The position numbers and the translations under genes are program-made. The notes under the pieces were generated by a model. It worked only from the letters and a program-made list of their open reading frames with translations, made no database searches and was not told the origin of the DNA. Source: Alphaproteobacteria bacterium (lineage in GTDB: Bacteria; Pseudomonadota; Alphaproteobacteria; Rs-D84; SZUA-605). From it: a stretch of DNA of 64,000 nucleotides. The DNA is taken from contig JAVBPW010000002.1 of NCBI GenBank assembly GCA_031549385.1, positions 34,271-98,270 on the forward strand, given 5' to 3'. Positions 46,498-62,207 of this stretch are shown here, piece by piece (position 1 is the first letter of the stretch; each line of letters begins with the position of its first letter).

Positions 46498-48125
46498 CAC
46501 ATTTTATTCTCCTTTTTTAGTTCCATATCCATATATTTCTTAATAATTTCTTTATCATAAAATCTTATTTTACAGCTTGGAAGCATTAACATTCTGCTTA
46601 TTTGTAAATCTTCTAAAAATGGTAAGTCGTGACTTACAATAACAAGTGTTCCTCCATAATTAGTTAAAGCTTTTGCCATTATTTTTTTTGTTGGAATATC
46701 TAAATGATTTGTAGGTTCATCGAGAAGAAGTAGATTATTTTGAGCAATACATAGTCTTGCAATTTCAAGTCTGCTTCTTTCACCAGGGGATAGTGTTTTA
46801 ACTTCTTGAAAAACTTTATCACCTTTGAAGTTAAAAGAACCTAGTATTGTTCTTATTTGGCTATCGTTATAGTTTACACTTGATACTGCGTCCAAAATAC
46901 TCAATTTTTCATCTATATTTGAATGTTCTTGTTCATAATATCCTATTTTTGTTTTATTTCCAACTTTTATGCTACCTTTATCTGACTTTAATAGGCCTGC
47001 CATTAACTTTAGCATAGTTGATTTTCCAGCGCCATTTGCCCCAATAATAATAAATCGTTCATTTGGTTCAATTTCAAATTCAGCATTTTTTATAACAGGT
47101 TTATCTTGAGTATAACCGAAATTTACACTATGAACTTCAATAGGATTTTGAGTTTCTTGTTTTTCTACCTTTAAATCTATTTTAATTTCTTTTTGTTTTT
47201 TAGGTGGTTCAAGCATATTTTCTTTCATTTTATCAAGTAATTTTTCTTTACTTTGTGCCTGACGCTTCATTTTTCCAGACTTGCCTTTTTGTGTATCTAT
47301 AAATTTTTGCAAATGTTCTATTTTTAAACTTTGATTTTTTAATTGTTTTTCTAAATGTAAATTATTTTCTTCAACTTGTGATAGAAACTTCTGGTAACTA
47401 CAATTATAAATATTTGTAGATTTAGTTTGATTATCAATGTATAAAATTTTATTTGCTAATTTATTTAAAAAATCTTCGTCATGAGAGACAAATAGAACAG
47501 AAATTTTTAAATTTTTAAGGTAATCAATAACCCAATCTTTCGTTTCTTTATCTAAATGATTTGTTGGTTCGTCTAATATCAAAAATGAAGGTGCGGAATA
47601 TAATGTTCTTAAAAATGAAAGTTTAGATTTTTGCCCACCTGATAATTCTATCATTTTTTTATTTAAAATATTTTTAGGAATTTTGAAATTAGCAATGAGC
47701 TTTTCTAAATCAATATCTGCTGTATATCCACCATAATACTCAAATTGATTTTGACTTTTTTCTAATTCTTCAATTAAATAATCTGAAGAGTCTTTGCTTA
47801 ATTTTAAATATAAATCATTGATTTTTGTAGCAAGTTCTTTAACAGGTCTTCCTGAATACAAAAAATCATAAACAGATATATCATCAGGGATTTCAAGTTC
47901 ATCAATTGTTTGTGGCATCCAACCAATATGTTGGTTTGATGGAATAAATTCAATATCACCGTCATTGTAATGTAGGTTGTTTGCTATAATTTTGATTAAA
48001 GTAGATTTTCCTGCTCCATTTAAACCAGTAACTGCAATTTTATCTCCATCGCTAACACTAAAATTTACATCTTTAAAAATAAGATGATCAGCATAAGACT
48101 TTGAAAGATTTTTTACAATAAGCAA
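46497..48125 (-). CDS. ABC-F family ATPase
   Basis: Two ABC domains (GLNGAGKST/LSGGQ/LDEPTNHLD; GANGAGKST/LSPGE/LDEPTNHLD) joined by a linker; no TM segments. Confidence 0.93.
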   Translation of the reverse strand: MLIVKNLSKSYADHLIFKDVNFSVSDGDKIAVTGLNGAGKSTLIKIIANNLHYNDGDIEFIPSNQHIGWMPQTIDELEIPDDISVYDFLYSGRPVKELATKINDLYLKLSKDSSDYLIEELEKSQNQFEYYGGYTADIDLEKLIANFKIPKNILNKKMIELSGGQKSKLSFLRTLYSAPSFLILDEPTNHLDKETKDWVIDYLKNLKISVLFVSHDEDFLNKLANKILYIDNQTKSTNIYNCSYQKFLSQVEENNLHLEKQLKNQSLKIEHLQKFIDTQKGKSGKMKRQAQSKEKLLDKMKENMLEPPKKQKEIKIDLKVEKQETQNPIEVHSVNFGYTQDKPVIKNAEFEIEPNERFIIIGANGAGKSTMLKLMAGLLKSDKGSIKVGNKTKIGYYEQEHSNIDEKLSILDAVSSVNYNDSQIRTILGSFNFKGDKVFQEVKTLSPGERSRLEIARLCIAQNNLLLLDEPTNHLDIPTKKIMAKALTNYGGTLVIVSHDLPFLEDLQISRMLMLPSCKIRFYDKEIIKKYMDMELKKENKM

Positions 48126-48189
48126 TAAACACCTCTCTGGTTATATATAGTTTATACATTTTTTGTTAATATTCAAGTATAAATAGAAG

Positions 48190-48789
48190 TTATTTATTAT
48201 TTTCTACAAACCAAGTTGCAAATATATTTAAACTTCCTTCTGATTTTCCACCAGAATAGTATTGATTAACTTCGTCTTCTGTCATTTCTGCCATTCTTTT
48301 TTGAAATCTTTCAATCCAAACAATCTTCCATAAAACAGACCAAGCCAAAGGTGAATCTACTTTACTAATTTCATTAGCAATTGATACTTCACCACCTTTT
48401 CTGTGGAATTGATGTTCCTGACCATTAACATCAATATATGTTGCAGTACTTACAAATTTAGCATTTCTATTTTCAACGCCATTCATCAATTTTATAATTC
48501 CTTCTGCCCCCAAAGTTTGATTTATATATTTAGTATAAACTCCAGGAAATCCTTTTAATGCTTCAATTGCAAAACCGCCATCTTCTACTAAAACAGGTTC
48601 TTTTAATTGTTCAAAGGCCTGTCTTGCTTTGAATAGTGATACTTCAGAAAAGTTATCAGCTTGAGGTTCAATCAAATTCAAATTCAAATTAGTAGGAACA
48701 ATTTCAATATCAGAACGACCCAAACTTACAAAAAAGTTTTGTAATGTTTTTGCTTTTCCTGCATTTGAAGTAATTAAGTGTATTTTCAT
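48190..48789 (-). CDS. Non-canonical purine NTP pyrophosphatase (Ham1/ITPase family)
   Basis: LITSNAGK, KARQAF, VEDGG..I.ALKGFPGVYTK; the C-terminal SHR motif is not conserved. Confidence 0.8.
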   Translation of the reverse strand: MKIHLITSNAGKAKTLQNFFVSLGRSDIEIVPTNLNLNLIEPQADNFSEVSLFKARQAFEQLKEPVLVEDGGFAIEALKGFPGVYTKYINQTLGAEGIIKLMNGVENRNAKFVSTATYIDVNGQEHQFHRKGGEVSIANEISKVDSPLAWSVLWKIVWIERFQKRMAEMTEDEVNQYYSGGKSEGSLNIFATWFVENNK

Positions 48790-49097
48790 TAATCTATCCT
48801 TTTGATTTGAACCGCAATTAGTCCATATTTATTTTGTTCTTTTTCAGAAAACCATTTATTTAAATGTCTTCTTAAATTTTCTTTATCCATATTTATTTTT
48901 GCAGCTTTAATATAGCTTGTAATTTTATTACTACTATTAATATTGTTTTTATTTAATAAATTATTTTTTAATAGATTATTTGTTGAATTTGATCTGCCAC
49001 CATGAGTTGAACAGCTTCGTTGGTAAGCAGATATCTTTTTACCATTTCTAGTATGGGAACTAACTGAAATAGTTCCACTACATTTATTTTTAGACAT
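48789..49097 (-). CDS. Small hypothetical protein (possibly a fragment)
   Basis: Stop overlaps the ITPase start (TAATG); first gene after the repeated promoter. Confidence 0.45.
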   Translation of the reverse strand: MSKNKCSGTISVSSHTRNGKKISAYQRSCSTHGGRSNSTNNLLKNNLLNKNNINSSNKITSYIKAAKINMDKENLRRHLNKWFSEKEQNKYGLIAVQIKRID

Positions 49098-49110
49098 AAT
49101 GTTTCTTTTG

Positions 49111-49235
49111 TTTAAAATTAGTTAATAAAAAAGACCACGGAAACCGTGGTCAAATTAGATATAAAAAATGGACGCAATTCGCCCATATAACTAAAAAATA
49201 TTATACAATATTTTTATTAAAAAGTCAAGGAAATT
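49111..49235 (-). promoter_or_regulatory. Repeated promoter + structured leader/terminator, copy 1
   Basis: Minus-strand TTGACT (49228-49223)-N17-TATAAT (49205-49200), then hairpins TGGGCGAATTGCGTCCA and GACCACGG-TTT-CCGTGGTC-TTTTTT; homologous to 62063-62187. Confidence 0.8.
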
Positions 49236-49350
49236 TTATAGACAAACCGCAATCAGCATTTATGTTGTTGCACTTCTCTGTCATCTCAGAAATTTGTGAA
49301 ACGCAGTTTTGAGCAAATATTCGAGGGATCTAATTCGCTGAAACCTAAAG

Positions 49351-49521
49351 TAGTGACACCGCCAAATTCGCCATTGTATGTAAGTTGAGCAATTTTAGCT
49401 AAAAAGCCATACCAAAAAGGCTTACAGTATCAATATTTGAAAAAATATCGGCTGTGAGTGGCTGTGTGTGCGGAGTGGTTGAAATAATAAAAATCTCGAT
49501 ATTCAAGAATTTAAATGGTAG
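49351..49521. repeat. Junction repeat J2 (folded module + type B arm + TGGTAG core)
   Basis: Closely similar to 62208-62380; core at 49516. Confidence 0.9.
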
Positions 49522-49658
49522 TTCGCTCAAGATTCGAATTTGCAACATCAAAGGTATCTTTGCCTTTACCAGCCTTGATTTGCGAGACTTTAGGCGATTT
49601 GTGGCTAGGTTATGAAATTTACCTCAATCTTGCCAAAGACCACAAAAACATCGCCTAG
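49516..49658. repeat. Right-arm repeat P', copy 1 (tRNA-3'-end mimic + hairpins)
   Basis: Homologous to 60838-60979; first 34 nt match the tRNA-Pro 3' end at 22/34 positions without gaps. Confidence 0.85.
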
Positions 49659-49860
49659 GAATTGAAATTTACGTATCATAAAAAATCTCTGTTTTGTATC
49701 AAAAAATGATTTGATTTAGTTATTATTGAAATACGTATAAAAATTCTTTCTTGTATTTAAATATAAGATAATAGATTTGTTTGTATTATAATGTTGATTA
49801 ATTGCTTTATTTGTATTATAATACATATAAATAATATTAAAAAATAATAAAGGGATTTAT

Positions 49861-50958
49861 ATGGGTAGCTTTGTATTAAAAAGATTTCCTAAGATTTTAG
49901 ATGATTTTCCTAAAAATCAAGATACTTTTGCTGCAGAAAATAAGCTATCCAGATATGACGGTATGGTGGAATTTGTATATTCTCCGGAAATATTAACCTC
50001 TATATTATTCTATCAAGAATCTGTTATGTCATCAAGGCTGGAAGGAACAGTTGCTACAATAACTGATATTTTAAATTACAAAGTTGGTAAAGACCTTTCT
50101 GAAAGAATAGAGGCAGATGCAACAGAGATAGAAAATTATAAAGATGCTTTGGGATATTGTATAAAAGAAGTAGAAGACAATAATTTTGTTATAACTGCTT
50201 CCCTTATTAAAAATATACAAGCTATTTTATTAAATCAATCAAGAGGGAAGGATAAATTAAAGGGAAAATTTAAGGAAAAACAAAACTATATAGGAAATAA
50301 ATTTGATGGAAAAATAACATATACTCCTGTTTCCCATTTACATACAGAAGAATATATGAATGAATTAATAAATTTTATAAATTCAAATACAAATATGAAT
50401 CCTATAGTAAAGATTGCTTTCATACATGCTTATTTTGAATTAATACATCCTTTTGAAGATGGAAATGGACGTGTTGGGAGAATATTAATTCCAATATTGT
50501 TAAAAAAGTATGGAGTTTTATCTACACCTTATTTTTATATAAGTTATTATCTGTCAAAACATAGAAATAATTATATTAATTCTCTTGAGGCAATTTCTAA
50601 GAATAATGATTGGGAAAAGTGGATAAACTTTTTTATAGAAGTAATAGAAAAGCAAACAGATATGCTTATAAAAATGCTTAGAAGATTAAAAGAAATTAGG
50701 AAAGAAACAGAAGATAAATTATCTTTATTAAAATCTCAATTTAATATTCAAGTCTTAAATTTCTTATTTAGAAGGATTAAATTTACTACAACAACATTTA
50801 TAAAAGAAACTGGACTAAATGGTAATACCGCTAGAGCTTTGTTAAAGTCTATGGAAGAAAATGGAATATTGGAAACTGAAGAAAGAGGTTTGGGACAAGC
50901 TCCGTCAATTTATAGATTTGTTGATTTATATAAAATGGTTGAGGAAATTTCAGAATAA
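49861..50958 (+). CDS. Fic family protein with C-terminal winged-helix domain
   Basis: SSRLEG inhibitory helix; canonical HPFEDGNGRVGR; palindrome TGTATTATAATACA (49812-49825) upstream may be an operator. Confidence 0.92.
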   Translation: MGSFVLKRFPKILDDFPKNQDTFAAENKLSRYDGMVEFVYSPEILTSILFYQESVMSSRLEGTVATITDILNYKVGKDLSERIEADATEIENYKDALGYCIKEVEDNNFVITASLIKNIQAILLNQSRGKDKLKGKFKEKQNYIGNKFDGKITYTPVSHLHTEEYMNELINFINSNTNMNPIVKIAFIHAYFELIHPFEDGNGRVGRILIPILLKKYGVLSTPYFYISYYLSKHRNNYINSLEAISKNNDWEKWINFFIEVIEKQTDMLIKMLRRLKEIRKETEDKLSLLKSQFNIQVLNFLFRRIKFTTTTFIKETGLNGNTARALLKSMEENGILETEERGLGQAPSIYRFVDLYKMVEEISE

Positions 50959-50996
50959 TATTTTCGAGGTTCTTTGTATTTGTAAAATCATTTTAA

Positions 50997-51026
50997 TTGA
51001 CTTTTGCAATAATTTAACCATATAAT
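50997..51026 (+). promoter_or_regulatory. Sigma70-type promoter of the trpS leader
   Basis: TTGACT-N18-TATAAT. Confidence 0.65.
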
Positions 51027-51049
51027 ACGTTTATAAATAAAGGAATAAA

Positions 51050-51091
51050 ATGATTTTTAAAAATTTATGGTGGCAAGAAGTAATTAAATAG
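51050..51091 (+). CDS. Trp leader peptide MIFKNLWWQEVIK
   Basis: AAGGA RBS; tandem TGG TGG codons; lies upstream of trpS. Confidence 0.8.
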   Translation: MIFKNLWWQEVIK

Positions 51092-51193
51092 GCGCTTATG
51101 GTTGTAAGCGCCAGTGGCTCTTGCAATCCTTTTAAAGATAAATACCCGTGGTGTTGCAATAGCATATCACGGGTTTAATTTTATCTAAAAGGA
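51091..51193 (+). promoter_or_regulatory. Attenuator hairpins of trpS
   Basis: GGCGCTTA/TAAGCGCC stem (51091-51112); long stem 51127-51193 in which TCCTTTTA pairs with TAAAAGGA covering the trpS RBS. Confidence 0.75.
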
Positions 51194-51201
51194 GTAAAAA
51201 G

Positions 51202-52191
51202 ATGAAACAAAAAGTAATGTTAACAGGCGTAAGACCTAGCGGAAATATAACGTTAGGGAATTATTTAGGAGCTATTAGAAACTTTGTAAACAAACAAGAT
51301 TTATATAAAAGCTACATATTTATAGCAGATTTGCACGCAATAACTTCATACAGAAATCCAGTTGAATTAAAAAATGCGATTTACGATTGTATAAAAATGT
51401 ATATGGCTTGTGGAGTTGATATAAATAATACAATAATCTTCAAACAAAGTGATGTTTTGGAGCATGGAGTATTGGGATTTATTATGACTTTTCAAACAAG
51501 ACTTGGAGAGTTATATAGAATGACACAATTCAAACTTCAATCTCAAAATATTGGAAAAGACGGAATAGATACGGGGCTTTTGATTTATCCTACTTTAATG
51601 GTGGCCGATATTTTACTATATGACACTGATATTGTTCCAGTTGGTTTAGACCAACAACAGCATGTGGAATTATCGCGAGATTTATCACAAAGGTTTAATA
51701 ATAAATATGGAAAAACTTTTAATGACCCTGATGTTTATATAACTCCAATTGGTAATAAGATTTTGAACTTGCGAAATCCAAATGAAAAAATGAATAAATC
51801 TGATAATGGGGATAATATGGGAACTATATTTCTTATGGATGATGTAAAATTGGCTAGAAAAAAGATAATGTCAGCAGTAACCGATAATGAAGGAATAGTT
51901 AAATTTGATTTGGAAAACAAACCTGGAATTTCTAATCTTATTAGTATTTTATCTTGCATAACAAATGAACCCATAGAAAGTATTGAACAAAAATTTGAAA
52001 GTAAAGGATATGCTATTTTCAAGGAAGAAGTGGCAAATATGGTATGTAATTTATTATCTCAAATACAGAAAAACTATAAAAAATATGACAATAATATGGT
52101 TGATGAAATTTTAGCAAATGGGGCAAATCAAGCAAGAATAAAGGCTGGCGAAACTTTGATTAAAGCTAAGGAAAAATTAGGGCTAAGTTAA
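51202..52191 (+). CDS. trpS: Tryptophanyl-tRNA synthetase, bacterial type (island-borne)
   Basis: TGVRPSG.ITLGNYLGA, ADLHAIT, YPTLMVADILLY, VPVGLDQQQH, KMNKS. Confidence 0.95.
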   Translation: MKQKVMLTGVRPSGNITLGNYLGAIRNFVNKQDLYKSYIFIADLHAITSYRNPVELKNAIYDCIKMYMACGVDINNTIIFKQSDVLEHGVLGFIMTFQTRLGELYRMTQFKLQSQNIGKDGIDTGLLIYPTLMVADILLYDTDIVPVGLDQQQHVELSRDLSQRFNNKYGKTFNDPDVYITPIGNKILNLRNPNEKMNKSDNGDNMGTIFLMDDVKLARKKIMSAVTDNEGIVKFDLENKPGISNLISILSCITNEPIESIEQKFESKGYAIFKEEVANMVCNLLSQIQKNYKKYDNNMVDEILANGANQARIKAGETLIKAKEKLGLS

Positions 52192-52192
52192 A

Positions 52193-52360
52193 GTAGTCAC
52201 CCCTCTGGTTTAGGGTATTGTATGTAAATGGTATAAAAATCACAAAATTTAGATTTTGGAAAGGCTTACAGGGCGACTACGTGAGCGGAAAGCCCGCAGA
52301 AGTCCGGCGGATTGGGGAAATAAAAAAGCCTTGCATACACAAGGACAATTTAGTGGTCGG
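52193..52360. repeat. Junction repeat J3 (folded module + type A arm + TGGTCGG core)
   Basis: Closely similar to J1; core at 52354. Confidence 0.9.
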
Positions 52361-52921
52361 CAACCAAATAAATCTGCGACATTTGAAAATACTTTAGAAA
52401 TGTCTAGATCAGGTGTTGGTCCATTATCTACATTAGCATGTCTTAAATATTTAGGTATTGAAGGATACCAAAAGAAACTTGGAAAACTTCTTGATACTTC
52501 AATTTATTTAAAGGAACAGTTAGGGCTTTTATCAGAAAATCAAAATTGGGTATCTGTATTTGTTTGCATTAAACCTGATTGGATGAAAGATATGAGTTTA
52601 AATAACTTACAATGTATGTCAGCGGAGCAATTAAGTATATTAAAGCAATTAAATACTGATTTTGCTAATTGGATAAAAGAAAATAATTTGAGAGGTAATT
52701 GTCCTTTTACATTTACTGCATCAAGTGTATGTAAAATTCCAAATACTAATATTGATATTGGAGCTCTTAAATTATATCCTATGTTTTCTGAATTTGATAA
52801 AGATTATGTTGATTTATTTTTACAACAATTATCGGATAAATTAAAAGAATATAAAAAAATTAATAGGATAATTAAAGAGGATAAAGATATTCATTTGGAC
52901 CCTGTTTATAGAAAAGTATAA
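52354..52921 (+). pseudogene. 3' fragment of a PLP-dependent (group II) decarboxylase, truncated at junction J3
   Basis: NTLEMSRSGVGPLSTLACLKYLGIEGYQ resembles the post-PLP-lysine segment of group II decarboxylases; the ORF-track start (52256) lies inside the repeat. Confidence 0.65.
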
Positions 52922-52945: not shown

Positions 52946-52974
52946 TTGACTTGTTAGTAATAATATATTAAAAT
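52946..52974 (+). promoter_or_regulatory. Sigma70-type promoter of the tRNA-Tyr/rSAM operon
   Basis: TTGACT-N17-TAAAAT, 11 nt before the tRNA. Confidence 0.7.
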
Positions 52975-52985
52975 CCCTAACACCT

Positions 52986-53070
52986 GGAAAGGTGGCCGAG
53001 TGGTTAATGGCAGCAGACTGTAAATCTGCCCTCTCTGAGTTCGTAGGTTCGAATCCTGCCCTTTCCACCA
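52986..53070 (+). tRNA. tRNA-Tyr (GUA), bacterial type (G1:C72, long variable arm, encoded CCA)
   Basis: Acceptor GGAAAGG/CCTTTCC-A-CCA; anticodon arm GCAGA-CTGTAAA-TCTGC; variable stem CTC/GAG; T-loop TTCGAAT. Confidence 0.96.
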
Positions 53071-53090
53071 TTTTATAAGGGGTTTTCATT

Positions 53091-53963
53091 ATGCATATAA
53101 ATATTGCCGTTGGAAGATCTTGCTTTTGTAGATGTCTTGGTTGTTGTAATCACTTTTGTAGAGATGAGAAATTATTAGAAACTAAATATATAATATCTTT
53201 TTTGGAATATTTAAAAAATAACAATATTAAGTATATTACATTTTGTGGAGGAGATCCTTTATCTAGACCAGATATAATGGAATTGTTGATAGAAACTAAA
53301 AAACTTGATTTTATTGTTTCTGTTGATACTCTTGGAACTCCTTTGATAAAAGCAACAGAGACTATTTTTCATGGAAACTGCAAAGTGTCTAGATTAGATG
53401 TAGAAAAAATTTCTAAATTAATTGATTATATAGGAATTGCATTAGATGGAACTACATCTGAGACAATATCTTTTTTTAGAACAGGAAGAAAAAATATTTT
53501 TGAAGAACAAATTAAAATAATAAATTTGTTTGATAAATTGGATAGTAATATATGTATAAACACTGTAGTTCATAGGAAAAATATAAAAGATTTAGAAAAT
53601 ATGCCTTTTATAATTAATAGATTTAAAAATATAAAGCAATGGGAGTTGTTTCAATATATGCCTATTGGAGATTTAGGGTATAAAAATAAGGATTTATTTG
53701 AAATTACAGAAACAGAATTTAAAGATTTTTGTGAAAATTTATCGTTTAAATTGGAAAAAAGTTTTAAACCTGAGGTGCAATTTAAGAGTCGTTCAATTAG
53801 AAAAAATAAGTATATGTTAATTAATACTGATGGTTCTGCTTATTTTCCTAATATGACTAATACGCAGGATTGGAACGTCGTAGATACTTCTAATAATGTA
53901 GTTGTTATTGGAAATATAAAGAATAAAGATGATTTTCATAAAATCGTTGAGTTTATAAAATGA
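53091..53963 (+). CDS. Radical SAM protein (no SPASM domain; viperin-like size and layout)
   Basis: CFCRCLGC (CxxxCxxC), ITFCGGDPL, IGIALDG, INTVV, WELFQY. Confidence 0.85.
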   Translation: MHINIAVGRSCFCRCLGCCNHFCRDEKLLETKYIISFLEYLKNNNIKYITFCGGDPLSRPDIMELLIETKKLDFIVSVDTLGTPLIKATETIFHGNCKVSRLDVEKISKLIDYIGIALDGTTSETISFFRTGRKNIFEEQIKIINLFDKLDSNICINTVVHRKNIKDLENMPFIINRFKNIKQWELFQYMPIGDLGYKNKDLFEITETEFKDFCENLSFKLEKSFKPEVQFKSRSIRKNKYMLINTDGSAYFPNMTNTQDWNVVDTSNNVVVIGNIKNKDDFHKIVEFIK

Positions 53964-54589
53964 AAAAAATTAAATACATAGATATTTTTGATAAAAAAGA
54001 ACTTCCTGAATTAGTTGAAGGATATAGATATTTGGATTTTATTGGTGGAACAAAAAATTATAGATATTTTATAGTTCCCTTTAATACTCCTAGATGTGAA
54101 TTATTAAAAAATAATATTAATTTATTGGACGCATGTTTAATACCTATTTATGAAAAAGAAGGTGTAGTAATTAGACAAGACCCATCATATCCATTACCGG
54201 GGTTTTATATTTTAAGTTATGAAAAACAATATAGTGCATTTGATTTAATTGATTTAATGACGCATTTAAGAACTTCTTTTTTATTACATTATATAAGAAA
54301 AGGTATGAGGAAACACTTAAATATAAAATATATTCATTTATATTATGATGAACAGATTCAAAAATCATATAATGTTCATTATTGGTTATTGCCGGTTCAA
54401 GAAAAGAATTCAAAAAATGTAAAAAAAATATATGACTTAGAATTAAAAAAATATCTTGAAAAATTTGAATATCAAACAGAAAAAGATATCATATTAAAAT
54501 ATAACGATATTATGAGAAAATATATAAAAAATATAAAATTAGAAGAATTAGATTCTAATTTTATGAAATTACTTAAACAAGGAATATAA
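53960..54589 (+). CDS. HIT-like nucleotide-binding protein
   Basis: IRQDPSYPLPGFYIL and NVHYWLLP resemble HIT-family motifs, with a degenerate histidine triad. Confidence 0.6.
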   Translation: MKKIKYIDIFDKKELPELVEGYRYLDFIGGTKNYRYFIVPFNTPRCELLKNNINLLDACLIPIYEKEGVVIRQDPSYPLPGFYILSYEKQYSAFDLIDLMTHLRTSFLLHYIRKGMRKHLNIKYIHLYYDEQIQKSYNVHYWLLPVQEKNSKNVKKIYDLELKKYLEKFEYQTEKDIILKYNDIMRKYIKNIKLEELDSNFMKLLKQGI

Positions 54590-55227
54590 TGTTAATAGTT
54601 TTTGATGGGCTTGATGGAGTTGGTAAAACTACTTTAGCTAAAGAAATAGCTAAAAAATTTGAAGCGAAATACTTTAGATGTTTTCTTCCAAATGATGAAA
54701 TGAAATTAAAAACATTAATAAATAACAAAGAAAATTCAATAAATATTCATAAAAATAGTATTAAATATATAGAAAAAAGATGTTGTAAGATTTTATCTTT
54801 TTTAAAATCTAATAAAAATGTAGTTTTAGACAGATATATATATTCAAGTATTGCCTACTATTATGCTATAACAAAAATGGAAAAAAATATTGTGAAAATA
54901 ATAGATTACAATGATTTTAATTTATTAAAACCAAATGCAAGTTTCATAATCTTACTAGATGCTAAAAATATAAAATATCGTAGCAAAAATAAATTATTAG
55001 ATAATACAGATAAATTAAGTATTTATAATAAATTTTTTATAAAAAATGTAACAAATTGTTTCAATTTTTTTCAAGAAACAGAGGATATATTTTTTATAAA
55101 AAATAATAATAATTTAAATAAAACAATATCAAAAATATTAGATATACTAAATAATGTTAAAGATACTAAACCTAATTATTGGATTGGGGAAGAATCTATA
55201 AATAAAATTTTATTTAAGCTTAAATAA
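54589..55227 (+). CDS. Thymidylate kinase-like nucleoside monophosphate kinase
   Basis: IVFDGLDGVGKTT P-loop; VVLDRYIYSSIAY. Confidence 0.85.
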   Translation: MLIVFDGLDGVGKTTLAKEIAKKFEAKYFRCFLPNDEMKLKTLINNKENSINIHKNSIKYIEKRCCKILSFLKSNKNVVLDRYIYSSIAYYYAITKMEKNIVKIIDYNDFNLLKPNASFIILLDAKNIKYRSKNKLLDNTDKLSIYNKFFIKNVTNCFNFFQETEDIFFIKNNNNLNKTISKILDILNNVKDTKPNYWIGEESINKILFKLK

Positions 55228-55258
55228 AAAAAGACTAACATTCATGTTAGTCTTTTTT
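55225..55258. terminator. Bidirectional terminator shared by the kinase and tyrS2
   Basis: AAAAAAAGACTAACAT-TC-ATGTTAGTCTTTTTT. Confidence 0.85.
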
Positions 55259-55259
55259 A

Positions 55260-56459
55260 TCAGCTTTTTTTTAACAAGAAAAATCCCAATTTTCCAACTC
55301 TTAATCTTAGATCTGTTTCTGCATTGATTAATTCATTTTCATTGGTAATTTTTTCTTCATTGATACTTACTGCGTTTTGTTTCAGTAACCTTCTTATTTC
55401 TGAATTTGATAATTCAGGTTTAGCTTTTTTAATAGCTTGCAGTAAAGAGGTTCCTTCATCAATTAAAATAACAGGAGCGGTTTCAGGAAAAGATTTGTTT
55501 GAAAATGTCATCAGAAAAGCTTCTCTTGCAGAATCTGCAGCTTCTTTCCCATGAAAAATTCTAACAACTTCCCAAGCAGTAAATACTTTAGCATCTCTAG
55601 GATTATTCTTTATGTTTAATGCCTTAATTTCATCTAAAGGAACGCGAGTATCATTAATAAGTACTGGTTCTATCATTTGATCTGTAAGGGACATAATTTT
55701 TCCAAACATATCCTGAGCGGTCGAATTTAAGAAAACACCCGTGCCATTCGATTTTGACATAAGTTCCCCTGTGATAGGATCTTCCATTAAGTTAACAGCT
55801 ACAACGAACTTTTCCTTATTTTTAAGCTTTTTTATTAGGGTTCTTCCCATTAAAGCATTAAAAACTTGGTCTGTTCCGCAAAGCTCTACATCAACATCTA
55901 ATGCAACACTGTCATATCCTTGAAATATAGGATAGATAAATTCGCTAAGATGCACTGGCCTATTTTCAGACATTCTTTTTTGAAACATATCTCTTTCCAA
56001 CATTCTTTGAACTGTTGTAGTAGACAATAATTCAATTAATTCTGAAACGGACATCTTGTCGAACCATGTACTATTTAAAACCACTTTAGCAGGATTGATA
56101 GGATCATCAAAATTTATGATACCTTTTATTTGATTTACCCAGCTTTTGATATTTTCCCTAGCTTTTTCTCTAGTTAAAATAGTTCTAGCAGAAGTTCGAT
56201 CACTAGGATCTCCAATACAGGCAGTCAAATCACCGAATAACACAAAAACCTTATGTCCCATCAATCTAAATTCTTCAAGCAACATAAAATTCTTTGCATG
56301 GCTTAAATGAAGAGAGTCACCTGTAGGATCAGCCCCTATGTAAAACTTCATAGGTTTATCTGATAATAAGCGTTCCTTAAATTCACTTTCAGAGGGAATA
56401 ATTTCTTTTATTATTCCTCTTGATAAGATTTTTTCGATTTTTTCTAATTTATTTTCCAT
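55260..56459 (-). CDS. tyrS: Tyrosyl-tRNA synthetase, bacterial type (second copy)
   Basis: YIGADPTGDSLHLSH, IGDPSDR, YPIFQGYD, ELCGTDQVFN, LMSKS, C-terminal S4 domain (SNSEIRRLLKQNAV...RVGK). Confidence 0.95.
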   Translation of the reverse strand: MENKLEKIEKILSRGIIKEIIPSESEFKERLLSDKPMKFYIGADPTGDSLHLSHAKNFMLLEEFRLMGHKVFVLFGDLTACIGDPSDRTSARTILTREKARENIKSWVNQIKGIINFDDPINPAKVVLNSTWFDKMSVSELIELLSTTTVQRMLERDMFQKRMSENRPVHLSEFIYPIFQGYDSVALDVDVELCGTDQVFNALMGRTLIKKLKNKEKFVVAVNLMEDPITGELMSKSNGTGVFLNSTAQDMFGKIMSLTDQMIEPVLINDTRVPLDEIKALNIKNNPRDAKVFTAWEVVRIFHGKEAADSAREAFLMTFSNKSFPETAPVILIDEGTSLLQAIKKAKPELSNSEIRRLLKQNAVSINEEKITNENELINAETDLRLRVGKLGFFLLKKS

Positions 56460-56573
56460 GTTTATTTATATATAATTTTTAGCCTTAAAAGTCAAGACAA
56501 TATATTATTGAATAAATGTTAAAATATCAATAAAAAAGTCAATTATTCTCCACAAACCACGTTGCAAATATAT

Positions 56574-57614
56574 TTAAACTTCCTTACTTACAAATTTAGC
56601 ATTTCTATTTTCATAACCATTAACACCTGCATAATCCCATACATTTGTACGATAGCGACCATGTATACCCAGTTCTACATTATTTATATGTGAAGCCGCT
56701 CCATGCTTATAAACAAAAACTAATTCATGTTTTGAACGATAAAAAGAACCCATTCCACCAGATGTTTTATTCCAAACACAAAGATTTTTCATCTCTGTAT
56801 AAATTTGTTCACAGGCTGTTGTCATTTCCATAATATGTCTCCAGTCCATACAAATGTAATGAAGAGAACCATCAGTGGAATAATTGGTCAAATGACCGAA
56901 AACATTTTTCAAAAAATCTGTAAATTCATCTTGTGACATTTCACCACTTGCCATAGCAAATTCATCATGCTTTGTTTTTCCTAGCCCGCAAACATGACCA
57001 GTTATTTTAACATTATAAGGTGGGTCAGTAAAAATCATTTGAGCTTTATCTTTTCCCATTAAAATAGAAAAACTTTCATCTTTAAGACTATCTCCACAAT
57101 ATATTAAGTGATTTCCAAGTTGCCATAAGTCACCAAGTTTACTAACAGTATTCTCTTCAATTTCAATGACTTCATCCATAGGGTCTTTATCTTCACCATT
57201 AATATTTTGAATCATAAGGTCTATTTCTGGTAGCTCAAAACCAGTTACTTCCAAATCAAAATTTAGCTCTAAATCAGATAAGTCTTTAAGTTCTAAACTT
57301 AAAAGGTCTTCATCCCAACTTCCATTTAACGTAAGCTTATTATCTGTAATTCTGTAGGCTTTCTTTTGGGATTGTGTTAAATGGTCTAAAATAACACAAG
57401 GAACTTTTTCTAATTTTAGTTCTCTTGCAGCTAACCATCTCCCATGTCCTGCAAGTATTTCATTATTTTCATCAATTAAGATTGGGTTAGTAAAATCAAA
57501 AGTTTCAATAGAAGAAACTATTTGGCATACATGTTTATCATTATGAATACGAGCATTTTTTTCGTAAGGTTTTATATCTTTTACGGCGATATAGTTTATT
57601 TTTAATTCTGGCAT
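56574..57614 (-). pseudogene. ParB-N-domain DNA methyltransferase (N6/N4), C-terminally truncated
   Basis: PYEKNARIH, AGHGR, TDNKL (ParB/Srx); FTDPPYNV motif IV; ends soon after NVWDYAG with no HPT/FxGSG SAM-binding motif. Confidence 0.8.
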
Positions 57615-57824: not shown

Positions 57825-57995
57825 GTGTACAAAAAACCACCTATAAACCATAGATTTCAGAAAGGAAAGTCCGGGAATCTGAATGGGAGGCCGAAAAGCA
57901 AAGAATTCTACCTTATTGACTTGACTTCCACCTTCTTCCAAGAGTTAATTGTGCGGTGTATGTTCGTAAATCGACAGAGAAAGGCTTGGAGTTAG
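57825..57995 (+). pseudogene. DUF5681-like fragment
   Basis: AAGGAG RBS + GTG; YKKPP..HRFQKGKSGN..GRPK motif, then runs out of frame into the recombinase. Confidence 0.6.
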
Positions 57996-59566
57996 AATTC
58001 AATTCGCTCCAAAATCAAGAGGAAGCTTGCAAAGCCTATATAATGTCACAGGCTTTTAATGAATGGCATCATTATAAAACCTATACTGACGGAGGGATTT
58101 CTGGTGGGACTATGGAAAGGCCTGCGTTGAAACAAATGCTAGATGATATTTCCAAAGGATTGGTGAAAACAGTACTTGTTTATAAGGTAGACAGACTTTC
58201 AAGGTCTATCATGGATTTCCACAATATGATGAAGGATTTAGAAAAATATAATTGCAACTTTGTGTCTATCACACAGGCTTTTGATACATCGACTTCTATG
58301 GGTAAATTGACTTTGAATATGTTATTATCCTTTGCTCAATTTGAAAGAGAGGTTTCGTCAGAGCGTGTAAGGGATAAAATTTATGCAAGTAAAATGAAGG
58401 GCTTTTGGATGGGTGGAACACCACGACTTGGTTATGATATTGTTGATAAAAAGTTAATAGTAAATGAAGTTGAAGCAAAATTAGTTAAGCATATTTTTGA
58501 AACATATTTAGAAATGAGTTCTATCAGAGAATTAACTTTATATTTGAGAAGACACAAAGTTGTTAACAAAAAATGGATTACTAAAGACGGAATTGAACGA
58601 GGCGGAACGGAGTTTTTAGGGTCATCAATCCACAGAGTTTTAAGGGATCATATTTATATTGGCGAAGTGGAAAGTCGAAGAACTAAAGAATTCTTTAAAG
58701 GGCAACATAAACCTATTATAGAACAAGAATTATTTGATAAGGTGCAGGAGAAATTGAGTACTCACAATTATCGAAATAGTTCGAGTTGTTCTGCTTCAAA
58801 TAACCTTTTGAGTGGGAAGCTGTTTGATGATAAGGGAGAGCAATTTATAAATCAAGCCACCAGTAAAAGTCAAAAAAATCATAGAAAATACTATGCTATC
58901 AAGGGGTTTTATTTGCATGCAACTCAAGTGGATAGATTTGCAAAAGATGTTGTCAACGAGGCTCTGAATATAGATATTAATAAAATAGGAACTATACTTA
59001 AACAAATAAATTTCAAAGAAATGAATTACTTCAATCAGAAGGATTTTATAAAGGCTTTTGTAAAAAAAGTTATTTATCAAGAGGACAAATTGACCTTCTT
59101 TTTTAACCTAAACGATGAAAATTTGAATGGATTTATTCAGGAAGATTATATAAATTCTTCCAATGAAACCAAGGAATATATTGTTGATAATGTTAATAAT
59201 CAAATAATTCTTGAGCGAGAATTCTACTTTCAAAAAAATATGAAAAGCACAAAATATAATGCAGGTAAGACGGGGTTGATGAGTGTAACAGATAATCAAC
59301 AATCCATAGTGAGAGCATTTTCCTATGCTTGGAAGTTTAAACAAATGTATGAAGAATGTGGCAATATAAAGCAAATTATGCAATCAGAGAAAGCAAATCT
59401 TAGAACTGTTTACAGATATTTAAATCTAGCTTATTTATCTCCAAATATAATAAATGGATTTATGAATGGAAAATTAAATTTTGATATCAGAGAACTATTT
59501 ATACTAGCATCAAAATATGATAATTTCAAAGAACAGGAACATTATTTGATTGAACATAATTTATAA
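57956..59566 (+). CDS. Large serine recombinase (resolvase + recombinase domains); native start apparently lost
   Basis: (VNCAV)YVRKS catalytic Ser, DGGISGG..ERPAL, VYKVDRLSRS, NMLLSFAQFERE, GYD, HKPII; in-frame TGA at 57917 and no RBS. Confidence 0.92.
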   Translation: MYVRKSTEKGLELEFNSLQNQEEACKAYIMSQAFNEWHHYKTYTDGGISGGTMERPALKQMLDDISKGLVKTVLVYKVDRLSRSIMDFHNMMKDLEKYNCNFVSITQAFDTSTSMGKLTLNMLLSFAQFEREVSSERVRDKIYASKMKGFWMGGTPRLGYDIVDKKLIVNEVEAKLVKHIFETYLEMSSIRELTLYLRRHKVVNKKWITKDGIERGGTEFLGSSIHRVLRDHIYIGEVESRRTKEFFKGQHKPIIEQELFDKVQEKLSTHNYRNSSSCSASNNLLSGKLFDDKGEQFINQATSKSQKNHRKYYAIKGFYLHATQVDRFAKDVVNEALNIDINKIGTILKQINFKEMNYFNQKDFIKAFVKKVIYQEDKLTFFFNLNDENLNGFIQEDYINSSNETKEYIVDNVNNQIILEREFYFQKNMKSTKYNAGKTGLMSVTDNQQSIVRAFSYAWKFKQMYEECGNIKQIMQSEKANLRTVYRYLNLAYLSPNIINGFMNGKLNFDIRELFILASKYDNFKEQEHYLIEHNL

Positions 59567-60676
59567 GTGTATAAAATAAAAATTATGAATAATATTAACT
59601 TAGATGATTTTTTTGAAGAAAGAGAATGCACCTATAAAGATGAAAGATACTCTGTTCGCGATAATGGAGCAGTAATAAAATATCCTCGTGAAGGCAAACG
59701 ACCCCGTCCAACTGACAATCAATGGACTTTTGGAGTTCCAAACCGCAGAACAGGCTATATGGAAATTGCTTCAGCCCGTATACATAGAATAGTCGCTACA
59801 GCTTTTCATGGTGAAGCCCCAACAAAAGAACATGTTGTTGACCATATTGATACAAATCGTAAAAATAACCGTCCAGAAAATTTACGATGGTTAACAAGAT
59901 TAGAAAATGCATTACAAAATCCTATAACAGTTAAACGTATTATATATGCTTGTGGTAGTATAGAAGCATTTTTAGAAAATCCTTCTATATTACAGGAAAA
60001 TGCTATTGAACAAGATTACCAATGGATGCGTACAGTTAGTATTGAAGAAGGACAAGCTAGTTTAAAACGATTACTTGAATGGGCTGCAAATGATATATCT
60101 TCATCTGAAGGAAAATCTTTAGGAGAATGGTTATTTAAACAATATACTCCTAAAGCTACAAAAAAAATAATTAATGAAGATGTGTTTTCTAAACCTACAA
60201 AAAATTTTGACTTTAGTGAAATTACTACAAAAGGACAATTGGTTGAAAAATCACAAGCAGAAAAGACGGAAGAAATTTCTGATTTAGTAGTATCAAAAAC
60301 GCCAAATGCTGTTCAAAGAGATTGGAATATTCCTAGTGAATTTCCATGTTGCCCTAAAGAAATTGGCAAAAATCCAATTCAAGATTATGCTGAAAATTTA
60401 AAACAAGATTTAATATTTTGTCGTAATGACATATACTTTTCTAAAGTCTATAAAAGTGGATTATCAATAGATAATAAATCTATATGTGTAATATCTGAAG
60501 CTTCAAATGAGGGAGCTGTAAAACCTTTTGCTCTTGCTAAAATTACTTACAAAGATGGTTTATTTGTACATACAAGTCTTGGCACATTTTTTTCAGAAGA
60601 AGGAGCTGACAAACAATTCACTATCGAAAGAGGATTGGAATGGACTGGTGGCGATAGTATTGATGATTATTGTTAG
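59567..60676 (+). CDS. HNH endonuclease domain protein (alternative start ATG 59585)
   Basis: IHRIVATAFHG...VVDHIDTNRKNNRPENLRWLT. Confidence 0.88.
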   Translation: MYKIKIMNNINLDDFFEERECTYKDERYSVRDNGAVIKYPREGKRPRPTDNQWTFGVPNRRTGYMEIASARIHRIVATAFHGEAPTKEHVVDHIDTNRKNNRPENLRWLTRLENALQNPITVKRIIYACGSIEAFLENPSILQENAIEQDYQWMRTVSIEEGQASLKRLLEWAANDISSSEGKSLGEWLFKQYTPKATKKIINEDVFSKPTKNFDFSEITTKGQLVEKSQAEKTEEISDLVVSKTPNAVQRDWNIPSEFPCCPKEIGKNPIQDYAENLKQDLIFCRNDIYFSKVYKSGLSIDNKSICVISEASNEGAVKPFALAKITYKDGLFVHTSLGTFFSEEGADKQFTIERGLEWTGGDSIDDYC

Positions 60677-60679
60677 AGT

Positions 60680-60843
60680 TTTGACACCGCCAAAATCGGC
60701 AAGGTATGTAAACCCTTCAGAAAAGGCAAAATCTGAGAATTAATGTGGCTTACAGTGTCAAAGATAACCTTGAAAGCCCGCAGAAGTCCGGCGGATTGGG
60801 GCAATAAAAAAGCCTTGCATACACAAGGACAATTTAATGGTCG
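60680..60843. repeat. Junction repeat J4 (folded module + type A arm + TGGTCG core)
   Basis: Arm near-identical to J1/J3; module ends (TGACAC/GTGTCA) like J2/J5; core at 60838. Confidence 0.9.
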
Positions 60844-60979
60844 TTCGCTCAGGATGCGAATTTGCAACATCAAAGGTATCTCTGCCTTTACCAGCCTTGA
60901 TTTGCGATACTTTCGGCTCTTTGTGGCGAGGTTAACAGAATTACCTCATATGTCGCCAAAGCCCATAAAACATCGCCTA
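60838..60979. repeat. Right-arm repeat P', copy 2
   Basis: Homologous to 49516-49658; 23/34 ungapped match to the tRNA-Pro 3' end. Confidence 0.85.
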
Positions 60980-61399
60980 CAAATGAATAATTTCAACATC
61001 TGGAAAATGAGATAGTAAATACTCAGCAACTAAACGACGATGGCACTGGTCAGGAAGTTTTTCAGTACACAAAAAACAAATTCCGTCTAACATTTCAGGA
61101 ATAAAGAATTTCTCAACTTTCCTTTCTTTTAAGATATTATTTAAAATTTGCTCATAACCAGTCCAATCAATCCCATTATTTTTATAGGTTTCTAGCAATT
61201 CTTTAGTTGGGGCAAGTTCAGGAAAATTCTTATATTTATTGCCTAACTTTTCCTGCAAATTTTTCCCGCTTGCCCAAGGAACAAAACGAGCTGTTCTCCA
61301 TAATCTAATATCTGCCAAAGTTTTCACTCCAGCAGATTCTAATATGTCAAAAAACATATCTTCTTTTTTCCCAGCAAAGCCAATAGTATAAATTTTCAT
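60977..61399 (-). CDS. DUF488 family protein
   Basis: MKIYTIGF, LADIR, ELAP, FLCTEK.P.QCHRRLVAEYL; start overlaps the upstream stop (TGATG). Confidence 0.88.
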   Translation of the reverse strand: MKIYTIGFAGKKEDMFFDILESAGVKTLADIRLWRTARFVPWASGKNLQEKLGNKYKNFPELAPTKELLETYKNNGIDWTGYEQILNNILKERKVEKFFIPEMLDGICFLCTEKLPDQCHRRLVAEYLLSHFPDVEIIHL

Positions 61400-62046
61400 C
61401 AATATAAAAATACTCCATTCAACATTAAATAACAATGATTATCTTGTATCAAAAATGGGCGAGCAAGTCCTATTCTTAGATGGACATATTTTGCATCGTT
61501 TAACATATTGTTTAATTTTTCTACATCTTTAGTTTTTTCAAAAATATCTCTTAAATATTTTGAACTAACTTTCAGATCATATTTTTTATCGGAAGAATCC
61601 ATAACCTTTGCTCTTAATTTTCCATTTTCAATGAAAAACTCCATTTTACTTGTAGGAATTACAATAGCTCCAAGTGACGCACATTTTGTTTTTTTATGAA
61701 TATATGAATTATATATAACATTATCATCAAAAATAGTTTGAATATCTTTTGATACGCTATCTTTTAACAATTGCGCCAATTTTCCATCTGGTTGATATAT
61801 TTCTAATACTTTAATAGAATCTAAATTTATATTAGTATCCTCTGTTTGATGAGGGTAATCTCTTAAAGTTGTTAATGGTTCATTTTCTACATTAATTACA
61901 GAATATGTAGGAATATCTTTTTCATCCCAATACATATTGTCTATTAGTAGTCTTTTCATTCTTTTTTCGCCAATATCCCAACCAGCAATACAGAATTTTT
62001 CTTTCATACAAGTAATGTCTGAAATAATTATATTTGATTTTTTCAT
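61399..62046 (-). CDS. Dual OB-fold domain protein
   Basis: N-terminal FCIAG..., PHQTED, SLG.I, LRIGLARPF...CY...NG; DUF488 neighbour. Confidence 0.7.
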   Translation of the reverse strand: MKKSNIIISDITCMKEKFCIAGWDIGEKRMKRLLIDNMYWDEKDIPTYSVINVENEPLTTLRDYPHQTEDTNINLDSIKVLEIYQPDGKLAQLLKDSVSKDIQTIFDDNVIYNSYIHKKTKCASLGAIVIPTSKMEFFIENGKLRAKVMDSSDKKYDLKVSSKYLRDIFEKTKDVEKLNNMLNDAKYVHLRIGLARPFLIQDNHCYLMLNGVFLY

Positions 62047-62062: not shown

Positions 62063-62187
62063 TTTAAAATTAGTTAATAAAAAAGACCACGGAAATCGTG
62101 GTCTAAATTGATATAAAAAATGGACGCAATTCGCCCATGTAACTGAGAAAGATTGTACAATATTTTTATCAAAAAGTCAAGGAAATT
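62063..62187 (-). promoter_or_regulatory. Repeated promoter + structured leader/terminator, copy 2
   Basis: TTGACT (62180-62175)-N17-TACAAT (62157-62152); same two hairpins as 49111-49235. Confidence 0.8.
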
Positions 62188-62207
62188 CGTGTTGCTGAAG
62201 CCCGAAG

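Follow-up and report, generated by a model that had tools for sequence, protein, structure and literature searches.

A candidate mobile, orthogonal tRNA-Tyr/TyrRS pair bracketing a viperin-like/HIT-fold/kinase operon in a bacterium with an archaeal-type TyrRS

The cassette described here lies in a 64,000-nt stretch of contig JAVBPW010000002.1 (assembly GCA_031549385.1, 'Alphaproteobacteria bacterium'), positions 34,271 to 98,270. We refer to this whole stretch as the window (G000:C4:34271-98270, where G000 is the host assembly). The host is a gut bacterium with a genome of ∼0.93 Mb (931 kb in 8 contigs, ∼30% G+C), and its assembly is 97% complete. The cassette comprises a tRNA-Tyr gene, three overlapping open reading frames (ORFs) for a radical SAM protein, a HIT-fold protein and a thymidylate-kinase-like protein, and a convergent tyrS gene, which encodes a tyrosyl-tRNA synthetase (TyrRS). 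Coordinates of these and other features are collected in Table 1.

The tRNA-Tyr is of the bacterial type, with G1:C72, A73, a long variable arm and an encoded CCA in the structure returned by ARAGORN. A model that had read the letters of the window (the original prediction) described this G1:C72, long-armed tRNA, a radical SAM gene 20 nt further on and the overlapping ORFs behind it, and all are found where it placed them. Its claim that the operon converges on a bacterial-type tyrS across a shared terminator is also borne out (TIGR00234, 318.6 bits versus a cut-off of 113.8; hairpin at 55233-55252). We read this hairpin by eye, since its 2-nt loop is below the 3-nt minimum of the automated scan. 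As for the promoter said to drive the tRNA, a TTGACT-17-TAAAAT site is indeed there, but such sites show no enrichment in the window (29 observed, 31.4 expected from shuffles), so that position alone makes the promoter plausible. Upstream, the proposed remnant of a decarboxylase is a weak call: TIGR03812 matches over 47 residues (E = 7.5e-6, 25 bits), but MfnA in the PDB gives E = 0.33, and there is no Pfam match.

Pfam finds tRNA-synt_1b in the TyrRS of the cassette, and HLSH and MSKS are visible in its translation. Toward the C-terminus there are weak matches to S4 (E = 0.0038) and SYY_C-terminal (E = 2e-4), both under the Pfam cut-offs. Its closest homologues in any organism share 73% identity; another, with 69%, bears the name 'Alphaproteobacteria bacterium'. 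Nothing points to phages as the source of this enzyme: 47 phage records matched, with a best identity of only 39%. A 35-nt stretch of the tRNA-Tyr had no exact match in viral contigs.

The cassette sits on a segment of ∼8.5 kb bounded by two copies of a direct repeat. This repeat (A) occurs three times, at 44306-44488, 52191-52372 and 60772-60843, the latter two being the boundaries. Besides the cassette, the segment encodes a large serine recombinase, an HNH-domain protein and a ParB-methyltransferase fusion (PADLOC MTase_II, 209.6 bits). The HIT-like gene was found in none of 40 relatives of the same order, and the TyrRS of the segment is 28–34% identical to the TyrRS of those relatives. Among 300 other genomes of the class that we sampled, a TyrRS of this type (E ≤ 1e-100) is found in G117 only, as a second copy. 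Because of the direct repeats, the large serine recombinase and the absence of the HIT-like gene from all 40 relatives, we regard the segment as foreign and mobile; by these marks, the 52.3–60.8 kb part of the window is a horizontally acquired integrative island. The term 'mobile' in the original prediction thus holds, given 72-nt direct repeats 97% alike, the recombinase and the 0/40 count. The flanking genes, for seryl-tRNA synthetase (SerRS) and QueA, lie on different contigs in the relatives.

The host's own TyrRS was predicted to be archaeal-type, and its NF006330 score places it there, well above the cut-off (Table 1). With TIGR00234 it scores 95.7 bits, under the cut-off, and Pfam detects tRNA-synt_1b only, with no S4 domain. 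Orthologues 59–66% identical occur in 4 of the 40 relatives (G001, G006, G010 and G014). These four lack a bacterial TyrRS, which is present in 35 of the other 36; the fifth relative with no match to a bacterial TyrRS, G038, is 77% complete. A tRNA-Tyr pattern search matched in 34 of 40 relatives, nearly all with a long arm, and gave zero matches in G001, G006, G010 and G014. Reading the tRNA matches of these genomes (all 18 in G001, all 31 in G006, 22 of 30 in G010) revealed one tRNA-Tyr each in G001, G006 and G010, with C1:G72, A73 and a 5-nt variable loop; no tRNA-Tyr was among the 4 of 18 matches read in G014. The closest homologues of the host TyrRS are named 'Rickettsiales bacterium' or 'Alphaproteobacteria bacterium', and the next tier, at 47–52% identity, is archaeal. 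In a quick tree, six archaeal-type TyrRS sequences from bacteria form a clade of their own (SH-aLRT 100). These data suggest that the host lineage swapped its bacterial Tyr system for one in which the TyrRS is archaeal-type and the tRNA-Tyr has C1:G72 and a short arm. We found no report of an archaeal-type TyrRS in Alphaproteobacteria in the literature, which we searched mostly without subscription journals. The observation that this combination of enzyme and tRNA occurs in a bacterial lineage with proteins named Alphaproteobacteria or Rickettsiales concerns 3688-4842 of the window and loci L070, L077 and L098.

By the tRNA identity rules stated in the accessible text of PMC5370408, the two Tyr systems should not cross-charge, and the island pair is very probably orthogonal to that of the host. 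The proposal of an independent Tyr-decoding pair is supported by comparison with the TyrRS of the four relatives and the three C1:G72, short-arm tRNAs. Taken together, a mobile and orthogonal tRNA-Tyr/TyrRS pair is likely. A spare bacterial-type tryptophanyl-tRNA synthetase (TrpRS) in the adjacent segment comes without a tRNA of its own and is 36.6% identical to a second TrpRS on contig C7. The Trp system of the host is bacterial, its tRNA-Trp having the bacterial G73. This TrpRS serves as an internal control: of the two spare synthetases, only the one facing a host system of the other domain type is accompanied by a tRNA.

The island tRNA-Tyr is the only tRNA-Tyr that we found in the assembly. 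ARAGORN predicts 37 tRNAs in G000, and Rfam (RF00005, E ≤ 1) finds the same 37 plus three sub-threshold matches, none of them tRNA-Tyr. A native tRNA-Tyr of the C1:G72 type was not detected in G000 by ARAGORN, Rfam, BLAST with the G006 tRNA or a regular-expression scan, and the two spots in G000 that are syntenic with the tRNA-Tyr genes of G001 and of G006/G010 are tRNA-free. Contig ends overlap each other by 95–175 nt, which suggests that little sequence is missing. The native tRNA-Tyr is therefore apparently absent, an assembly gap being possible. The host TyrRS keeps all 58 columns that are invariant in an alignment of 55 sequences, and its branch length is 0.22, versus 0.35 for its sister. 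Such an intact enzyme would be unexpected had the native tRNA-Tyr been lost long ago.

The radical SAM protein has a Pfam Radical_SAM domain and a CxxxCxxC motif (C11/C15/C18), the cysteines of which are invariant. Over nearly its full length it matches the PADLOC family pVip ('viperins associated with kinases', PDLC02904) with 72.9 bits, a family for which the PADLOC library states no cut-off. Searched alone against the PDB, its top sequence matches are viperins (E ∼7e-6); with a profile of 30 family members, viperins rank second, over positions 2–248. Three orthologues match NCBIfam viperin_w_prok (NF038283) with 52–83 bits, and this family ranks first in two of them and second in one. NF038283 is not among the 25 families listed, out of 29, for the window protein. 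The AlphaFold2 (AF2) model has a pLDDT of 90.4, and viperin or viperin-like structures fill 9 of the first 10 PDB rows returned by Foldseek, the best match being 5vsm (E = 5.5e-12, TM 0.67/0.75, 267 columns). Judged on this modelled fold, the protein is viperin-like, not a proven viperin. Viperins produce 3'-deoxy-3',4'-didehydro nucleoside triphosphates.

The HIT-fold ORF has no Pfam or NCBIfam match and belongs to a rare family, with 10 homologues in a large protein search. Its best PDB profile match is a HIT-like protein (3lb5, E = 0.16). For the AF2 model (pLDDT 84), all 17 listed Foldseek PDB matches at E ≤ 0.001 belong to the HIT superfamily, with the Ap4A phosphorylase Rv2613c, Fhit and HINT in the leading rows. 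Family members share the motif N-V-H-[YF]-W-L-x-P (N138-V-H140-[YF]-W142-L) and an invariant H126. The third ORF matches Pfam Thymidylate_kin with 53.6 bits, versus a cut-off of 27. A predicted complex of the island TyrRS and the HIT-like protein (score 0.00, mark 0.32) is evidence neither way.

A profile search with the HIT-like family yielded 70 loci, 27 in species-representative genomes and 43 on metagenome contigs. A radical SAM gene is present in 60 of these, nearly always adjacent; of the ten exceptions, six are flanked on one side by hardly any sequence or none, another two match only partially, over 51 residues, and the last two, L118 and L140, have full flanks but no such gene. Viral contigs contained no relatives of either the radical SAM or the HIT-like protein. 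The pair also occurs in metagenome-assembled genomes recorded as uncultured Bacilli or Clostridia, several of them gut or faecal assemblies, so experiments need not rely on the uncultured host. Dereplication at 90% identity reduced the loci to 35 contexts, window included. In 19 of them, an aminoacyl-tRNA synthetase (aaRS) gene lies within five genes to either side: asparaginyl-tRNA synthetase (AsnRS) in 11, the α/β subunits of phenylalanyl-tRNA synthetase (PheRS) in 5, one of which is shared with AsnRS, and TyrRS in 4, to which L148 (TyrRS adjacent) and L120 (8 kb off) are to be added. We found no report of an association among viperin-like proteins, HIT proteins and synthetases in the same literature.

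The TyrRS gene is beside the HIT-like gene in L145, L147, L148 and L168 and 8 kb off in L120, and the contigs concerned range from 27 to 69% GC. This link appears in 5 of 11 deep, mutually distant rows of the HIT-like tree; the tree is a quick one with unsure placement of long branches, and groupings among the deep rows are thus tentative. The TyrRS genes at these loci are 27–36% identical to the island TyrRS. Adjacency over such a range of base composition and sequence points to a linkage that arose repeatedly or has been kept since ancient times, rather than to one capture. In L120 and L148, the pair is part of a common set (APH-like kinase, HIT-like protein, thiamine pyrophosphate enzyme, HAD hydrolase, radical SAM protein, aldo-keto reductase and TyrRS), with an MFS transporter in L120 only, and the setting looks like a small-molecule gene cluster. 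The linked synthetases tend to be extra copies. At least two full AsnRS genes are present in all five genomes tested that have a module-linked AsnRS, the genome with L120 (G046) has four TyrRS genes, and G000 itself has two TyrRS types. A tRNA gene of any kind was found near the HIT-like gene in 5 of 70 loci, 3 of them tRNA-Asn; these lie beside AsnRS genes in L155, L156 and L158, which form one 90% group. At L155:11490-14693, tRNA-Asn(GUU) stands between two full AsnRS genes, right after genes for HAD, HIT-like and radical SAM proteins, a layout reminiscent of the Tyr cassette of the window.

Starting from the documented anatomy of the cassette, its foreign origin, the synthetase and tRNA types, the protein folds and the gene linkage, we favour the following account. 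The kinase would supply a nucleoside triphosphate, which the radical SAM enzyme would turn, viperin-like, into a modified nucleotide. The HIT-fold enzyme would then transfer or cleave a nucleotidyl group, and the resulting compound would act on or through the tyrosyl-adenylate site. The linked TyrRS would be the module's dedicated or insensitive synthetase. Inclusion of the tRNA-Tyr would follow from the fact that the host offers no bacterial-type tRNA-Tyr, so that a bacterial TyrRS would, in this one host, otherwise lack a substrate. A functional tie between tyrS and the enzyme module is marginally the better bet, while an immunity or dedicated-synthetase mechanism is a more tentative and rather doubtful step. 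The whole account, in which a mobile orthogonal Tyr pair brackets the viperin-like/HIT/kinase operon and tyrS serves as dedicated or insensitive synthetase, falls a little short of an even chance. The three roles originally proposed are all hypothetical; of these, self-resistance gains some support from the cluster-like contexts and the extra synthetase copies. Linkage of the three enzyme genes to tRNA-Tyr/tyrS was offered as a further check, and here the radical SAM and HIT-like genes do recur beside tyrS in unrelated loci; the kinase does not. The original prediction mentions neither the spare TrpRS nor the likeness of the radical SAM protein to viperin, nor the apparent lack of a native-type tRNA-Tyr, nor the archaeal-type Tyr systems published in 2017 for the candidate phyla radiation (PMC5370408).

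A number of observations weigh against this account. Sixteen of the 35 contexts have no nearby aaRS gene, and in L118 and L140 the HIT-like gene has full flanks and neither a radical SAM gene nor an aaRS. The first of these, a Pilimelia locus, has no cluster-like set either. The AsnRS and PheRS links come from one tight Bacillota clade (23 rows) and lie near relA, dtd, HisRS-like and LeuRS genes. Given this single clade and these housekeeping neighbours, the links represent few independent events and may reflect housekeeping synteny. PheS is double in two of five genomes tested and single in three. The tRNA-Asn of L155, L156 and L158 belongs to ordinary host systems, and it follows that co-location of a tRNA does not require orthogonality. 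The kinase is not conserved at other radical SAM/HIT loci, the cassette contains no exporter or amino-acid ligase, and no transporter gene lies within 52.3–60.8 kb. The island TyrRS resembles widespread TyrRS genes (60–73% identity) and has no obvious resistance signature. With respect to the enzymes, the radical SAM family profile that ranks viperins second ranks PqqE first (E = 1.4e-8, N-terminal part only), and all three orthologues fall under the NF038283 cut-off of 180, the curated sequence test for viperins. The labels 'HIT-like' and 'dTMP-kinase-like' of the original prediction hold for the fold and for the Thymidylate_kin domain, but the H-x-H-x-H-x-x triad is reduced to its middle histidine, and the kinase scores 62 bits with TIGR00041, under the dTMP-kinase equivalog cut-off of 83.25.

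A serious rival, if in our view fairly unlikely, is that the locus is a defence island. The radical SAM protein and kinase would then form a viperin-type antiviral module that makes chain-terminating nucleotides, with the tRNA-Tyr/TyrRS pair as separate cargo; this pair, the TrpRS, an ABC-F protein and a Ham1 protein would sustain translation when toxins of phages or competitors hit tRNAs, synthetases or nucleotide pools of the host. The viperin fold is as expected for such a module, and so are the PADLOC matches, which include pVip (72.9 bits), PDC-M51B (53 bits) and VakA (29 bits), both for the kinase, SoFic (301 bits) and MTase_II. Phage-encoded tRNAs rescue cells from tRNA-cutting defences, which gives the tRNA gene a possible place here. 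Moreover, the entire 44–62 kb region is inserted, repeat-bounded DNA, with an ABC-F ATPase, a Ham1/ITPase and the spare TrpRS in the adjacent segment and DUF488 and DuOB genes at 60977-62046. However, the pair has no relatives in viral contigs, its Bacillota members reside in housekeeping neighbourhoods (relA, dtd, aaRS) rather than defence islands, and the setting in L120 and L148 is metabolic and cluster-like. The radical SAM protein is under the curated viperin cut-off, and the recurrence of TyrRS adjacency in unrelated lineages would be left unexplained.

Alternatively, tyrS and tRNA-Tyr could have been captured from a donor chromosome in which housekeeping translation genes adjoined the radical SAM/HIT pair, with no functional tie to the enzymes. 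The captured pair would now be neutral, or it would have assumed Tyr decoding once the native tRNA-Tyr was lost. The ordinary look and widespread type of the island TyrRS would fit capture, as would the position of the Bacillota module among housekeeping translation genes. Takeover would fit the sole tRNA-Tyr, the two tRNA-free syntenic spots and the contig-end overlaps of 95–175 nt, but it sits poorly with a host TyrRS that is intact at 58 invariant columns and shows no long branch. Hitch-hiking, for its part, does not account for TyrRS adjacency across 27–69% GC with enzymes 27–36% identical to that of the island, nor for linked synthetases that are extra copies where tested (AsnRS, the TyrRS of G046 and that of G117). 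We consider this explanation improbable. Modification by the radical SAM/HIT pair of whichever tRNA lies with it (tRNA-Tyr in the window, that for Asn or Phe at other loci), with a synthetase adapted to the modified tRNA, is very improbable: the tRNA gene does precede the operon by 20 nt and apparently shares its transcription unit, L155 has a tRNA-Asn between two AsnRS genes, and the linked synthetases (Tyr, Asn, Phe) all serve G34 anticodons, but the protein is unlike known tRNA-modifying radical SAM families (QueE-type models match weakly, with E = 4e-5 and 1.6e-4, and just at the N-terminus), Pfam detects no RNA-binding domain, the fold is that of viperin, a free-nucleotide enzyme, and a tRNA is nearby in just 5 of 70 loci.

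The island is one part of a larger structure. Insertions form a mosaic over the 44.3–62.4 kb region, with an ankyrin-repeat gene on one side and tRNA-Pro on the other. Further repeats join 49111-49657 to 60831-60979 and 62063-62406, including 3' fragments of tRNA-Pro. In the stretch 49111-49657, a copy of what lies left of tRNA-Pro meets a copy of what lies right of the tRNA-Pro-like fragment; it thus resembles an attP-type relic, the junction expected of a circularised small element spanning positions 60.8–62.4 kb. Such an element would carry the DUF488 and DuOB genes at 60977-62046. The adjacent segment, 44306-52372, is bounded by copies A1 and A2 and encodes a P-loop kinase-like protein, an ABC-F-type double ATPase, Ham1/ITPase and SoFic (49861-50958; PADLOC 301 bits), a gene set with a translation and nucleotide-sanitation flavour. 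The radical SAM gene at 45441-46500, which is frameshifted and of the SPASM type, was rejected as a further viperin, its pVip score of 41 bits being generic. Two stretches of 44 and 37 nt are 92–93% identical between 56542-56621 and 48196-48483. They overlap the 3' end of the ParB-methylase gene and the spacer downstream and match parts of the Ham1-like gene in the neighbouring segment, and this suggests related elements as the source of both segments.

Table 1. Features of the window discussed in the text (positions are those of the window; nt, nucleotides; aa, amino acids)
Feature	Position	Strand	Evidence or remark
Host archaeal/eukaryal-type TyrRS, 384 aa	3688-4842	+	NF006330 383.2 bits vs cut-off 220
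Spare bacterial-type TrpRS, adjacent segment	51202-52191	+	TIGR00233 311.8 bits; without own tRNA
Left direct repeat, copy A2, 72-nt core	52288-52359		97.2% identical to 60772-60843
Pyridoxal phosphate (PLP) decarboxylase-like C-terminal remnant (weak call)	52400-52921	+	TIGR03812 (MfnA Tyr decarboxylase)
Promoter-like TTGACT-17-TAAAAT	52946-52974	+	10/12 matches; 11 nt 5' of tRNA
tRNA-Tyr(GUA)	52986-53070	+	ARAGORN; Rfam RF00005 60.3 bits, E 1.5e-10
Radical SAM ORF	53091-53963	+	ATG 20 nt 3' of tRNA; 290 aa
HIT-fold ORF	53960-54589	+	4-nt overlap with radical SAM ORF
Thymidylate-kinase-like ORF	54589-55227	+	1-nt overlap with HIT-fold ORF
Two-way intrinsic terminator	55226-55259		A-run, 9-bp hairpin 55233-55252, T-run
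Bacterial-type tyrS, 399 aa	55260-56459	-	Convergent to operon; TIGR00234
ParB-N + N6/N4 DNA methyltransferase fusion, mobile-element type	56574-57614	-	Pfam; phrog_498 322 bits
Large serine recombinase	57956-59566	+	Pfam Resolvase 131.6 bits, Recombinase 57.1 bits
HNH-domain protein	59567-60676	+	Pfam HNH_3 66.8 bits; PHROGs HNH endonuclease
Right direct repeat, copy A3	60772-60843		Runs into degenerate tRNA-Pro-like 3' fragment 60818-60869
tRNA-Pro(UGG), probable anchor of inserted mosaic	62375-62451	-	3' part repeated at 49496-49547, 60818-60869

Several further features of the window and genome deserve mention. Upstream of the islands are two very long ORFs, 18577-24261 (1894 aa) and 30967-41964 (3665 aa). 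The sole SerRS of the genome (42037-43377) is 35–39% identical to the SerRS of relatives, compared to 55–58% for QueA and 59–66% for the archaeal-type TyrRS, and the SerRS match in two relatives contains one in-frame stop. The gene for QueA, an enzyme of queuosine synthesis, adjoins tRNA-Pro (62493-63512); given its presence, the host presumably modifies G34 of tRNAs with GUN anticodons, tRNA-Tyr included. Outside the window, two odd tRNA genes stand side by side at C2:66626-66796. One has an amber-reading CUA anticodon, G1:C72 and G73 (Rfam 54.7 bits), and its neighbour, tRNA-like and 72 nt long, has an anticodon loop of 6 nt (44.5 bits). The idea of TAG reassignment that the former raised was ruled out, as TAG is the stop of 70 of 433 long frames. 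The host assembly yielded no tmRNA gene with ARAGORN. The two ends of contig C8 (2825 nt) share an identical overlap of 175 nt, which would fit either a small circle or a tandem repeat. One DNA sequencing run contained 0.99 of the sampled words and one RNA run 0.19, from which we draw no claim about expression or habitat.

How does the favoured account compare with known systems? Duplicated aaRS genes can confer resistance to inhibitors, as with the indolmycin-resistant TrpRS (PMC9437257, accessible text), and HIT hydrolases of the MccH type give immunity to peptide-nucleotide antibiotics (10.1101/2020.03.04.977132, accessible text). Systems for aminoacyl-adenylate-mimic antibiotics resemble the present locus in combining an extra synthetase and an enzyme of the HIT superfamily with nucleotide-handling enzymes. 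Unlike them, the window has no peptide precursor, MccB-type adenylyltransferase or exporter, and the chemistry here would begin with a viperin-type radical reaction. In addition, the type of synthetase varies among clusters here, whereas the radical SAM/HIT pair is constant. Albomycin, agrocin and mupirocin provide further cases for comparison of self-resistance synthetases. The TyrZ of B. subtilis, a stress-specialised second TyrRS according to the accessible text of PMC9437257, is likewise a second TyrRS of bacterial type, but it uses the host tRNA-Tyr, whereas the island enzyme would need, and does bring, its own.

Pairs of viperin and kinase, such as animal RSAD2-CMPK2 and pVip (PDLC02904), share with the cassette a viperin-fold protein of ∼290 aa beside a kinase of the thymidylate kinase family. 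Points of difference are an obligate HIT-fold partner (60 of 70 loci), of which we met no description in the literature searched, a kinase that is not conserved, the frequent presence of synthetase genes next door, and a score under the curated viperin cut-off. A conserved viperin-like/HIT pair tied to spare synthetases would matter for what it makes, which could be an immune molecule or a nucleotide-based inhibitor of synthetases of a new kind.

Bacteria of the candidate phyla radiation (CPR) have an archaeal/eukaryal-type TyrRS together with C1-G72 tRNA-Tyr (Mukai et al. 2017, PMC5370408). In its accessible text, that paper reports the Tyr system in CPR phyla only and describes two Trp pairs in one genome. 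Common to these bacteria and the present host lineage are an archaeal-type TyrRS and C1:G72 tRNA-Tyr in a bacterium. The host lineage differs in that proteins of its relatives bear the NCBI names 'Alphaproteobacteria bacterium' or 'Rickettsiales bacterium' and in having its own TyrRS clade, and a second, bacterial-type Tyr pair or a mobile element in the same genome is not described in the accessible text of PMC5370408. Archaeal-type Tyr identity would thereby extend outside the CPR. One can also join the strands into a single reading, which as a whole we regard as unlikely. The radical SAM/HIT pair would define an undescribed class of synthetase-coupled nucleotide systems that recruit an additional aaRS, for Tyr, Asn or Phe, in some cases together with the cognate tRNA; the aaRS would give both amino-acid specificity and an immune copy against an aminoacyl-nucleotide compound built on a viperin-made nucleotide; and the Tyr pair of the window would be a naturally occurring orthogonal one, mobile and outside the CPR, that may already have displaced the native tRNA-Tyr.

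If the favoured account is correct, the tRNA-identity barrier to synthetase transfer has been overcome by moving the tRNA with the enzyme, and a mobile element has brought Tyr pairs of two domain types into one cell, much as has been done by hand for genetic-code expansion. The TyrRS and tRNA-Tyr of Methanocaldococcus jannaschii in E. coli make up such an engineered orthogonal pair. In both cases, two Tyr pairs of different domain types would be separated by the 1:72 base pair and the variable arm. In the window, by contrast, the arrangement is natural and the roles are swapped: the host is archaeal-type, the guest pair is bacterial-type and rides on a mobile island, and Tyr codons would be read by both tRNAs.

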